From assembly GCA_050250935.1 (NCBI GenBank), contig JBFWNS010000001.1, forward strand, positions 224,001 to 288,000: a DNA stretch of 64,000 nucleotides. Direction: 5' to 3'. The stretch is from Candidatus Margulisiibacteriota bacterium. GTDB taxonomy: Bacteria > Margulisbacteria > Marinamargulisbacteria > JBFWNS01. The notes beneath the pieces are model-generated. The model did not search any database. It was given only the letters and a program-made list of their open reading frames with translations, and was not told where the DNA came from. Below, in pieces: positions 45,537 through 47,463 of this stretch. The position numbers and the translations under genes are program-made. Every line of letters starts with the position of its first letter. Within the stretch, counting starts at the first letter, position 1.

Positions 45537-46157
45537 CTAGTCCACCACCAAATAGGGGCGAAGCTGGGCCACTTTTTTCCAGCTGAACCCCTTGAGTTTG
45601 ACCAGTCCATCCAGACCAATAAAGGGGCCGTGCTCTTGGCGATAACTCACAATGCTTTTGGCAGCTCCCAGGCTGAGCCCCGGAACCAAAGCCAGATCTT
45701 CTGGGCTTGCTGTGTTTATGCCCAAAGGAAATGTAGGCCCTTCTTTTGGGGCTAGCCTGTCCGGGTTTTCAGTGGGATTTTTTCGGGTTTTGCGATGGGA
45801 TTCTTTGGGCAATTTGACGGCCTTTTGGGGCTTAACCTTTTTGGGCGGCACATAGATGCGCTGCCCATCTTTGACATAGGCCGCCAAATTGACCTTATCG
45901 ACATCGGCATTGGCCAAAACGCCCCCAGCTTTTTCCAATGCTTTTTGAACACGAATATGCCCTTGAATGGGATAGAGACCCGGATGCTGAACCGCCCCCG
46001 AAATATAGACCATGGCATGGGGTTTTTGAATCACAGGGGCCACAGCTGTTGTTTCGACCACCAGGGGTTGATCGGCGTTGTGATGGCGGAGCAATCCCAC
46101 CAAACCCAGGCAAAAAATGACGCCAACTCCGCCGATTAAAAACTTCGAATTGTCCAT
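45537..46157 (-). CDS. comEA: Competence protein ComEA (TM, SLBB, HhH)
   Basis: VYISGAVQHPGLY, VNLAAYVKDGQRIYVP, INTAS, AKSIVSYRQEHGPF. Confidence 0.88.
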   Translation of the reverse strand: MDNSKFLIGGVGVIFCLGLVGLLRHHNADQPLVVETTAVAPVIQKPHAMVYISGAVQHPGLYPIQGHIRVQKALEKAGGVLANADVDKVNLAAYVKDGQRIYVPPKKVKPQKAVKLPKESHRKTRKNPTENPDRLAPKEGPTFPLGINTASPEDLALVPGLSLGAAKSIVSYRQEHGPFIGLDGLVKLKGFSWKKVAQLRPYLVVD

Positions 46158-46209
46158 CGCTTACCCTTTTAATTTGAGAATTGGGGTGATATTATCGTCT
46201 TACTTGAGT

Positions 46210-46397
46210 GGCCGTATCGACGACGGACGGCCGATACGACCGGGTGGCGATCTTGATCTATTTAGACCGGGAAGTCCATGTCAAGATCGCCATCAGAACC
46301 GTAATCAGTTCGACGCATTCGCCGACTGTTACCTGTATCTGTAGTGTGACACCAACCATCTCCCTTTTGGGGGAGCCCCGATAAAAATAGGTCCGTC
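46210..46397 (-). ncRNA. Candidate structured RNA of unknown family
   Basis: Five hairpins, G-U pairs favouring the minus strand, 5' GACGGAC complementary to the last hairpin loop, TACAGT -10 box 6 nt upstream. Confidence 0.6.
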
Positions 46398-46512
46398 AGA
46401 CTTACTGTAGATTAATTAGACGTTTTTGGAAATAGATTTTTTATTTTTATCATGACGCAATTAAAATTATGATGGATTGTGCAGGGCAGTCATCCTCGCC
46501 TATACTTGGGGA

Positions 46513-47463
46513 ATGATATCCTTTTTTAAACACATCAGTAGGGTGACTTTGATTGCGGTTTATGTGTTGATTTTGGTGGGCGGTATTGTTCGGGCCACAG
46601 GGTCTGGCATGGGCTGTCCAGACTGGCCGAAATGTTATGGTCGCTGGATGCCTCCGACTTCTGAATCGCAGTTACCCGCCAACTATCAGGCCCACTACAA
46701 AGCGCTGGGCATTCATGATGTTACGTTTAATGCCTTAAAAACCTGGACCGAGTACATCAACCGACTGATTGGGGTGGTCATTGGACTGCTGATTATCACC
46801 ACTTTTGTGGCCTCATTTGGCTATGTTAAAACCAAACCCTCAGTCACGGCCCTTAGCTTTTTGGGGGTGGCTTTGGTGGTGCTTCAGGGATGGCTGGGCG
46901 CCAAAGTGGTGGCCTCGAATTTGCATCCCATGGTTGTGACTTTGCACATGGGGTTGGCTTTGGTTTTGGTTGCTGTTTTGATTACGGCCCGCCAGCTGGC
47001 TCTGCCCCCCAAACCCGAAGCCATCGATCGGTTGGATTTTTTACGTCTTTTGGCTTTGATCAGCTTGGTCTTTACCTTTGGGCAACTGTTGTTGGGCACC
47101 CAAGTTCGCGAAGCCATCGATGGGATTGCCAAGGTTATGGGCGAATCCGAGCGCTCGGCCTGGGTTAGCCATTTGGGCAACCGCTTCGATCTGCACCGCT
47201 CTTTTTCTTGGATTATTGTTCTGGTGAACGGATTGCTGGCTTATCACATTCGGCAACAAGCGGTGGGAACCGGGCGTTTGGTGCGATTGGCCAAAGCCAT
47301 TTTGCTTGTGATTGGCGCCGAACTGGCCCTGGGCATGAGTTTGGCCTATTTGGGATTTCCGGCAGCGCTTCAGCCTTTGCACTTGTTGTTGGGCACACTG
47401 TTGTTTGGGTTGGTTTTTACGGTTGTTTTGACGTTAATTCAACTAAAAAAAGCCAACACCTAA
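46513..47463 (+). CDS. ctaA: Heme A synthase (COX15/CtaA)
   Basis: GGIVRATGSGMGCPDWPKC, EYINRLIG, LQGWLG, VTLHM, LHR, QPLHL. Confidence 0.92.
   Translation: MISFFKHISRVTLIAVYVLILVGGIVRATGSGMGCPDWPKCYGRWMPPTSESQLPANYQAHYKALGIHDVTFNALKTWTEYINRLIGVVIGLLIITTFVASFGYVKTKPSVTALSFLGVALVVLQGWLGAKVVASNLHPMVVTLHMGLALVLVAVLITARQLALPPKPEAIDRLDFLRLLALISLVFTFGQLLLGTQVREAIDGIAKVMGESERSAWVSHLGNRFDLHRSFSWIIVLVNGLLAYHIRQQAVGTGRLVRLAKAILLVIGAELALGMSLAYLGFPAALQPLHLLLGTLLFGLVFTVVLTLIQLKKANT

Follow-up and report, generated by a model that had tools for sequence, protein, structure and literature searches.

The window considered here is a stretch of 64,000 nucleotides from the genome of a Candidatus Margulisiibacteriota bacterium (assembly GCA_050250935.1, contig JBFWNS010000001.1, positions 224,001 to 288,000), and the subject of this analysis is an RNA element of about 190 nt, here called copy c1, that is read from its minus strand between positions 46397 and 46210. 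The element lies in the spacer between two genes. On one side is ctaA/COX15 (46477..47463, plus strand; Pfam COX15-CtaA, 3.4e-51), a divergent neighbour with a promoter-like site of its own at 46426-46453 and with dnaE beyond it on the side away from the element; on the other is a comEA-like gene (45537..46157, minus strand; Pfam HHH_3 at 1.1e-14 and SLBB at 7.9e-13), which starts at 46157, 52 nt downstream of the element on the same strand, with no terminator found between the two in a promoter and terminator scan. The initial annotation of this stretch had proposed either a new non-coding RNA or a regulatory leader of comEA. An undescribed, structured minus-strand RNA with its own promoter is indeed present, but it carries a conserved open reading frame (ORF) and hence is not non-coding. 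The comparison of family members set out below makes it likely that this pseudoknotted messenger, with its 33 codons for a hydrophobic peptide, is the toxin half of a type I toxin-antitoxin-like module, to which comEA, as a neighbour, does not belong.

Read 5′ to 3′, the element opens with a promoter-like arrangement that agrees in every part with its first description: a −35-like hexamer TTTCCA (46427..46432), 17 nt, a −10-like hexamer TACAGT (46404..46409), 6 nt, and then GACGGAC (46391..46397), with transcription predicted to start near 46397; the site scores 8/12, below the 9/12 threshold of the promoter tool. Four hairpins follow, which we number 1, 3, 4 and 5. Hairpin 1 (46355..46392), assigned from folds and covariation, pairs a U/C-rich 5′ strand with the purine-rich ribosome-binding site and start codon, and has the apex GGGG/CCCC; in the consensus model these two elements are predicted to make up its 3′ strand. 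Hairpin 3 (46294..46341) lies entirely within the ORF. Hairpin 4 (46245..46292) has a coding 5′ strand, a stop codon in its internal loop and a 3′ strand in the 3′ untranslated region (UTR), and hairpin 5 (46210..46241), a 12-bp stem with an 8-nt loop, lies wholly in the 3′ UTR. The ORF itself (46258..46359, minus strand; MVGVTLQIQVTVGECVELITVLMAILTWTSRSK) has 33 codons followed by UAG, begins in the 3′ strand of hairpin 1 and ends in the internal loop of hairpin 4, and is preceded by a Shine-Dalgarno-like GGGAG (46360..46364) immediately ahead of its AUG.

The strand on which the structure resides can be read from its stability. The minus-strand RNA of c1, folded over 46205-46400, reaches −76.8 kcal/mol with a z score of −4.01, and none of 200 dinucleotide shuffles was as stable, whereas the plus strand has a z score of −1.54 and was equalled by 17 of 200 shuffles. 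This difference bears out both the choice of strand and the argument on which it had been made, namely that several apparent mismatches become G-U pairs on the minus strand only. Rfam scans likewise agree with the original failure to match the element to transfer-messenger RNA (tmRNA), RNase P, signal recognition particle (SRP) RNA, 6S RNA or riboswitch families: at gathering scores the full window yields a single tRNA elsewhere and no family at c1, a permissive search of 46100-46550 on both strands returns only two junk matches (E 3.2 and 4.7), and the element has no match to the covariance models of 6S, SRP, RNase P and tmRNA. The structure and its pseudoknot are new to Rfam.

The source genome (G000; 1.95 Mb in 17 contigs, completeness 95.85%) encodes a DnaE with 62% identity to that of a Candidatus Marinamargulisbacteria metagenome-assembled genome, and the closest relatives compared with it are genomes of the same class. 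RNase P and tmRNA are found normally elsewhere in it. The models for small bacterial SRP RNA (RF00169), large bacterial SRP RNA (RF01854) and 6S RNA (RF00013) give nothing at E <= 1 in this 95.85%-complete assembly; either these RNAs belong to sequence missing from the assembly or they have diverged too far for the models to recognise. The idea that the element might itself be the missing SRP or 6S RNA was set aside, given that no model matches it and that it is coding.

Relatives of the element lie beyond the reach of nucleotide comparison. In blastn searches c1 matches itself only and the other copies go undetected, and a DNA search of the whole c1 spacer against 61 relatives gave only matches of 20-35 nt, to the AT-rich promoter part. 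A covariance model built from c1 alone with its fold (R1) nevertheless recovered two further full-length matches in the source genome, c2 (C4:100171-100366, 46.7 bits) and c3 (C1:156813-157010, 38.6 bits), and none in the other 54 genomes of the class. The three-sequence model (R2), run over 146 genomes of the phylum, added c4 (C2:117876-118073) and one copy in G003, a 78% complete genome of the same class and another taxonomic family; the final model (R3) added c5 (C8:7833-8028) in the source genome, and with laxer filters it found no further copies in sets of 40 and 39 genomes. The family thus comprises six members, five in the source genome and one in G003, found in two of the 146 phylum genomes searched, with identities of 39-73% among copies over the ORF block. 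The sense promoter passes the threshold of the tool in c2, c4, c5 and G003; c3, like c1, is preceded by TTTCCA at a 17-nt spacing, and these two copies share the form TTTCCA-17-TAxxxT, scoring 8/12 or less. In all six members the −10-like hexamer ends 6-7 nt ahead of the 5′ pseudoknot arm.

A number of weaker candidates were considered and dropped. A pattern for the hairpin-4 signature found 34 loci in a metagenome collection, none a member by R2 (the best a 13.5-bit local match to the pattern itself), and nothing in viral contigs. One hairpin of 46 nt in another genome of the phylum (G071:C32, contig L037 971-1016), straight after an acpP-like gene, has a stem like that of hairpin 4 (GGAGGUCUUGA...UCAAGACCUCC); the rest of the family is not around it, it scores 19.8 bits, and it is probably a terminator-like hairpin matched by chance. 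Weak matches in G064/L084, G038/L080 and G023 (E 2.35) were discarded, as were weak peptide-profile matches within long ORFs.

The six members sit in unrelated surroundings. The RNA of c1 lies between divergent ctaA and comEA; that of c2 between divergent mazG and a convergent sepF behind a bidirectional terminator; that of c3 between a NUDIX gene and cutA; that of c4 between a co-directional gene and an MBL-fold gene; c5 lies between convergent genes; and the G003 copy is followed by a convergent tRNA-Leu. No partner gene stands beside any copy of the kind that a TnpB/IscB guide RNA, a retron msr-msd, a Y RNA or a CsrB-type sponge would call for, and the ORF explains the conservation better. 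The neighbourhood of c1 changes in a more distant relative: on a Ca. Marinamargulisbacteria contig (L020 7553-8152, plus strand) a gene with a nucleotidyltransferase domain stands downstream of dnaE in place of ctaA, the element and comEA, and the neighbourhood seen in the window is therefore not conserved at that evolutionary distance.

The family fold consists of four hairpins and a pseudoknot in which the first 6-9 nt pair with a hairpin loop in the 3′ UTR, and it is kept by compensatory changes. In the six true rows, aligned against the model once two reverse-strand rows, spurious matches to the palindromic hairpin 4, had been removed, standard pairs make up 334 of 381 cells (87.7%), as against 35-46% when the 3′ partners are slid by 1-3 columns. 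Covariation among homologues, which the initial annotation had proposed as a check, extends to 52 of the 69 pairs, each changed on both sides, and the GACGGAC/GUCCGUC arms are among the co-varying features. In a five-member alignment counted by the tool, which includes one spurious reverse-strand row affecting hairpin 4 only, 89.0% of positions are paired, changes on both sides affect 51 of 69 pairs, and the covariation score is 0.511 (shuffles, 0.215), a value that none of 500 shuffles reached. Two MAFFT alignments (A3 and A5) misplace hairpin 1, hairpin 5 and the c1 arm and were excluded from the counts; RNAalifold run on A3 gave only a partial model.

Within hairpin 1, helix 1 is 84% paired with 9/15 pairs changed on both sides, and all four pairs of helix 2, at its apex, have so changed; this long co-varying hairpin, in which GGGAG-AUG pairs with a U-run, conflicts with the short CUCCC/GGGAG hairpin originally placed at 46375-46360, which may be an alternative conformer. 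The base of hairpin 3 is formed by a co-varying helix, CAGA/UCUG in c1 (46341-46338 with 46297-46294), GAAGU/ACUUC in c2 and AAAGU/ACUUU in c3, and neither the proposed GUGUC/GAUAC hairpin (46352-46335) nor the alternative multiway junction closed by AUCGGGGCU/GGUUCUGAU is compatible with it. Helix 3 is 96.7% paired with 6/6 pairs changed on both sides, and helix 4 has 7/13. The hairpin described at 46332-46301 is present, but two bulged A's in it had been passed over. The perfect 12-bp stem of hairpin 4 (46292-46245), with its small apical hairpin, stands as first given, and helix 5 within it is 98.6% paired with 8/13 pairs changed on both sides in the count that includes the one spurious row; the stem reads GRUCUUGA/UCAAGAYC in c1-c3 and G003 and GGGCUUAGC/GCUAAGCCC in c4 and c5. 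This covariation of a coding 5′ strand with a non-coding 3′ strand shows selection on RNA structure in its own right. The 12-bp stem of hairpin 5 (46241-46210), also as described and including two G-U pairs, corresponds to helix 7, where both partners differ in 11 of the 12 pairs; the hairpin is followed by AC in five members and by AG in c5. A further short helix, P1, encloses hairpin 1 in five members (CUAGU/ACUAG in c2 and c3, CUAUU/AAUAG in c4 and G003, and a CUAU/AUAG type in c5); c1 lacks its 5′ strand, because its stretch from the arm to hairpin 1 has about 14 nt fewer.

The initial annotation had noticed that 7 nt of CGUCCGUC, the loop that closes the last hairpin, are complementary to the GACGGAC of the predicted 5′ end, and from this it had proposed a 5′-to-3′-loop pseudoknot. 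The complementarity is there, with GUCCGUC at 46222..46228 (minus strand) in the hairpin-5 loop as the 3′ arm, and the other family members bear the proposal out: 5′ arm and loop are complementary across 6-9 nt in all six, and the arms co-vary. When the longest perfect complement of the hairpin-5 loop was sought by script in the roughly 250 nt upstream, in c1-c4 and G003, it fell at position 0-3 of the predicted 5′ end in 5/5. The arms are GACGGAC/GUCCGUC in c1 (7 nt; shuffled loops did as well at that place in 13/2000 cases), AAAACGGAG/CUCCGUUUU in c2 (9 nt; 2/2000), AAACGGCG/CGCCGUUU in c3 (8 nt; 4/2000), AACGGAG/CUCCGUU in c4 (7 nt; 42/2000) and GCAGUC/GACUGC in G003 (6 nt; 18/2000), and those of c5, AAAACGGAC/GUCCGUUUU, were found by eye with no shuffle control. 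Common descent links the arms of c2, c4 and c5, and the independent events are thus fewer than six; the separate ones are G003, c1 and a single compensated change in c3. Judged by these sequences, the pseudoknot is real.

Alongside this structure, the members share a reading frame, the sole one of six that is open in all copies. The place of the GGGAG of c1 is taken in the other copies by GGAGG, AGGAGG, GAGGUG or GAGGGGG, and five of the six members have an ORF of 32-35 codons (33, 33, 33, 32 and 35 amino acids). The peptides are (M)ILIKLEVDISVKELLKLIVVLLAVLMIIAAQH in c2, (M)ISVKIGFEFTVEEFLIFCLVMSNLGLALYLGR in c4, (M)VSVKIEIKLSFKAFVVLLLLTLAGLALIISR in c5, (M)VGNVRIEFNVDFDIEEILKLIVLILVVLSLFVRQ in G003 and ...DIKLKVELTVGEIIELIVSLLVVLMLIARQH in c3, where a GUG stands one base out of frame. 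All are hydrophobic, with best 15-residue hydropathy windows of 2.1-3.3. Coding tests were made on a gapless 93-nt block of c1-c4. The sense ORF frame has no internal stops there and a mean BLOSUM62 score of +1.27; the remaining sense frames are interrupted by 20 and 5 stops, with means of −0.32 and +0.05, and the three antisense frames have 9, 3 and 11 stops. Differences by codon position are 18/9/17 between c1 and c2, 11/4/9 between c2 and c3 and 23/11/21 between c2 and c4, the second position changing least; replacements are conservative (V/I/L, E/D/K, S/T), and the stop stays at the same structural place. On this comparative evidence we take the RNA to be coding, not non-coding. The public gene call for c4 (P0002, 46 aa; L039 1552-1692, minus strand) takes as its start an in-frame AUG further upstream, within the 5′ strand of hairpin 1; the other copies lack this AUG, and the shorter GUG start is therefore more likely in c4.

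A hidden Markov model (HMM) of the peptide finds four copies in the source genome and the G003 copy, at E values of 8e-13 to 1.3e-17 per genome, and misses c5; in the 146 genomes it finds nothing else convincing. AlphaFold2, given a five-row alignment, predicts a single helix over residues 2-32 with a predicted local distance difference test (pLDDT) score of 81.6, which is weak evidence. Searches of Pfam, NCBIfam, PADLOC and PHROGs at E up to 10 return no family, save one PHROG at 0.21 for one of five peptides; the ESM Atlas gives a best score of 0.87 to unnamed clusters and nothing informative; and a profile search of 1.84 billion representatives returns only the predicted ORF of c4 itself and three chance matches of the repeat type.

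A natural variant of c1 is found in a second habitat and study. The sequencing runs listed for this DNA are four DNA runs, one of which may be its source, and no RNA run. Contigs of a sludge metagenome (run X3), the only ones to give variants, carry a version about 95% identical and covering window positions 46137-46462, at a depth of 2-4 at which single differences are possibly errors. Three changes fall within the RNA: AUG becomes GUG, turning a U-A pair of hairpin 1 into U-G; a C-G pair of hairpin 5 becomes U-G (46233); and one loop base differs. Four more changes fall in the 17-nt promoter spacer, none being listed in either hexamer.

On the opposite strand, a sigma-70-like site that would read into the element, with its −10 hexamer 9-14 nt past hairpin 5, is seen at five of the six loci, three sites passing 9/12 and two scoring 8/12. 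The c1 site is TTTAAT-16-TATTAT (46168..46195, plus strand; 8/12, by eye), from which a putative antisense RNA would start near 46202 and read into hairpin 5. The others are TTGAAT-17-TAAACT in c2 (8/12, by eye) and, all passing 9/12, TTGTGA-17-TATACT in c3, TTGAAA-17-TACACT in c4 and TTGAAA-17-TACTAT in G003; c5 offers TTTACT-16-TAGACT (8/12, by eye), displaced to about 23 nt. Sites scoring 8/12 or more end at 0.25% of strand-specific positions on three contigs of the source genome and 0.74% in AT-rich contexts, and the chance of one in a given 6-nt window is 0.015-0.044 per locus. The antisense direction is gene-free in c3 and c4. Two other promoter-like features were noted near these sites. 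Inside hairpin 4 of c2 and c3, antisense TTGACT-16-AATCAT or TAACAT sites (9/12; L034 1621-1648, minus, and L035 1552-1579, plus) are not conserved in c1, c4, c5 and G003 and were treated as incidental; they could be a second antisense start or chance. At c1, a TCGATA-18-GATAAT site (9/12; 46191-46220, minus strand) overlaps the sequence from the hairpin-5 3′ arm onwards, is interleaved with the predicted antisense −10, and faces comEA, which may have a separate promoter of its own there.

Taken together, the hydrophobic small ORF, the buried ribosome site, the 5′ end tied to the 3′ UTR, the scattered and partly decayed copies and the predicted convergent antisense promoter form a layout that PMC8594479 and PMC6733600 describe for type I toxin-antitoxin loci, and on it we base our reading. 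With moderate confidence, we regard these loci as a type I toxin-antitoxin-like family that is new and restricted to its lineage, and whose 5′-3′ lock takes the form of a pseudoknot; toxicity and the antisense RNA are predictions. The full-length RNA would be translationally quiet, with hairpin 1 hiding the ribosome site and the pseudoknot holding the 5′ end, and the peptide would be a membrane-active toxin. An antisense RNA from the opposite strand would begin with the complement of hairpin 5, and its loop would have the same sense as the 5′ arm of the mRNA, such that the two would be rivals for the loop of hairpin 5. A closed pseudoknot would keep the messenger silent and at the same time protect it from the antisense RNA; its opening, or trimming of the 3′ end, would expose the messenger either to translation or to antisense pairing and decay. 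A stronger version of this proposal, to which we commit only tentatively and with rather less confidence, is that these loci represent the first family of type I toxin-antitoxin systems in the Margulisbacteria lineage and have a self-shielding mRNA, in which the 5′ 6-9 nt plug the very loop needed for the first loop-loop kiss of the antisense RNA, and in which a single contact would decide whether the messenger is stored silently, captured by the antisense RNA or translated into a 33-residue membrane peptide.

Several observations weigh against a toxin-antitoxin-like role. The six members are few and kin, the alignments used for the pair counts were fitted to the model, and the E values of the models are rough. 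No sequence or profile similarity links the family to known type I toxins or antitoxins (Hok, Ldr, Ibs, TisB, Fst, TxpA, AapA, others and the Rfam antitoxin RNAs). The start codon lies 0-3 nt past the purine tract, which is a poor Shine-Dalgarno spacing, and occlusion of the Shine-Dalgarno sequence is not clearly shown, the unpaired probability of the region around it and the start being 0.48 against an RNA average of 0.33 in c1 and 0.42 against 0.36 in c3. In c3 the same peptide has no in-frame canonical start, and this copy either is decayed or uses another start codon. The arm of c1 overlaps a competing extension of hairpin 1 (UGACGGACC with GGUUGGUGUCA in the minimum-energy fold), and a switch between arm pairing and hairpin extension, confined to c1, is possible in the modelled fold. 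The opposite-strand sites of c1 and c2 fall below the 9/12 threshold and the c5 candidate is displaced to about 23 nt; the antisense direction leads to a divergent gene in c1, c2 and G003; and scans of the six loci found no intrinsic terminator for the sense or the antisense RNA.

The next most probable reading, which we think unlikely, is that this is a family of small membrane-protein genes with strongly folded mRNAs and no toxin-antitoxin role, encoding for example a regulatory or structural peptide, with opposite-strand sites that are incidental or serve the neighbours. Such a reading draws on the fact that the ORF and fold are shown, whereas toxicity and the antisense RNA remain predictions, as well as on the divergent genes met by the antisense direction in c1, c2 and G003 and on the two or three of six antisense sites that are sub-threshold or displaced. 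It fits less well with five diverged copies among unrelated housekeeping genes in a 1.95-Mb genome, which would be unusual for a gene of this sort, with the very narrow distribution (two of 146 phylum genomes), with one apparently frameshifted copy, or with an antisense promoter that faces no gene in c3 and c4. The buried ribosome site and start, combined with a tie between the 5′ end and the 3′ UTR, are moreover a published hallmark of type I mRNAs in the excerpts of the literature drawn on here (PMC8594479, PMC6733600).

A structured non-coding RNA family, trans-acting or protein-binding, whose open frame is a by-product of structure, appears improbable. The very strong covariation and pseudoknot, the absence of an Rfam match, the poor spacing between purine tract and start and the lack of an in-frame canonical start in c3 speak for it. 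What speaks against it is that one frame of six is open in all copies, that changes at second codon positions are about half as frequent as at the first and third, that replacements are conservative in peptides of 32-35 aa whose stop keeps a constant structural place, that the peptide HMM recovers copies at E down to 1e-17, and that c4 and c5, whose hairpin 4 differs in sequence, still keep the frame and its hydrophobic character.

The leader or riboswitch that the initial annotation had suggested for comEA fares worse still. Its appeal lies in the position of the element, 52 nt upstream on the same strand with no terminator between, so that read-through is possible; but a competence gene follows none of the other five members, the Marinamargulisbacteria relative has no such element next to dnaE, and there is no match to a riboswitch family. 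Three of the six members, c2, c5 and G003, have no co-directional downstream gene at all, which makes a comEA leader very unlikely: comEA is a mere neighbour, and its linkage to the RNA is coincidental. Equally remote is an intergenic DNA repeat of the repetitive extragenic palindrome (REP), bacterial interspersed mosaic element (BIME) or miniature inverted-repeat transposable element (MITE) kind, which the initial annotation had said many dispersed copies would indicate: several dispersed intergenic copies do exist, five of them in the source genome, but they are too diverged for blastn and yet keep their helices through compensatory changes and one-strand-only G-U pairs, they keep the open frame and flanking promoters, and R2 and R3 list in that genome only c1-c5 and reverse strands of the palindromic hairpin 4, so that the copies are genes and not DNA repeats.

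Type I toxin-antitoxin loci are almost invisible to annotation, and the case has some bearing on how they are sought. An orphan structured non-coding RNA with strong covariation can conceal a mini-gene, and paralogues beyond the reach of BLAST are still recoverable with a covariance model built from a single sequence. If the toxin-antitoxin-like reading is true, a family from an uncultivated sister lineage of the Cyanobacteria, found by RNA structure and not by peptide similarity, would widen the known range of these systems and provide a compact, covariation-backed example of a messenger locked via its own 5′ end.

Among known systems, hok/sok of plasmid R1 and enterobacterial chromosomes offers one parallel. 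There the toxin mRNA is folded back, through fbi and tac, so that its extreme 5′ end is paired with the 3′ end and the messenger is inert and stable, much as predicted for the Margulisbacteria family, and its loci are likewise multi-copy, with decayed copies common. The differences are that Hok has about 50 aa and is translated via the leader ORF mok, that Sok targets the 5′ leader, and that the 3′ partner is a linear 3′ tail and not a hairpin loop; there is no homology between the two. The hok/sok system is mentioned in PMC6733600 and PMC9841398.

The Gram-positive families with antisense RNAs overlapping from the 3′ side end in shared or bidirectional terminators, none of which was seen in the Margulisbacteria family, and they have no sequence or Rfam match to it. 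We know of no 5′-end-to-3′-loop pseudoknot described for any of them. In the excerpted part of PMC8594479, antisense RNAs that overlap on the 3′ side are given for TxpA/RatA, BsrE/G/H, YonT, SprA1, SprG and Fst. The predicted arrangement is like that of TxpA/RatA, BsrG/SR4, BsrE/SR5, YonT, Fst/RNAII, SprA1 and SprG/SprF in that a convergent antisense RNA, predicted here, would start 3′ of the toxin ORF and overlap the 3′ part of the mRNA (PMC8594479). The same source reports a curated type I database that covers 24 families, known through the literature from 218 species.

As far as the excerpts of PMC8594479 and PMC6733600 go, type I toxin mRNAs are marked by hairpins between Shine-Dalgarno and anti-Shine-Dalgarno sequences together with long-distance 5′-3′ interactions, and their peptides of about 30 aa are encoded in several chromosomal copies. 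The aapA/IsoA system of Helicobacter pylori is of this kind: the ORF of aapA3 has 90 nt, its full-length mRNA is inert via a 5′-3′ interaction, and IsoA3 binds the processed form only (PMC6733600). The Margulisbacteria family resembles aapA/IsoA in its hydrophobic ORF of about 30 codons and its several chromosomal copies, in a ribosome site predicted to be hidden by a CU-rich anti-Shine-Dalgarno sequence in hairpins, in a 5′-3′ interaction that would lock the full-length mRNA and, as we would infer, in an antisense RNA that acts on the unlocked form only (PMC6733600). It belongs to another phylum and has no sequence similarity to that system. IsoA falls within the mRNA and covers the 5′ part and the ORF (PMC6733600), whereas the antisense RNA predicted here would converge from the 3′ side. 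In aapA the long-distance interaction itself sequesters the Shine-Dalgarno sequence (PMC6733600), whereas here that sequence would be hidden locally in hairpin 1, and the 5′ end pairs instead with the loop of a 3′-UTR hairpin, as a pseudoknot that does not cover it.

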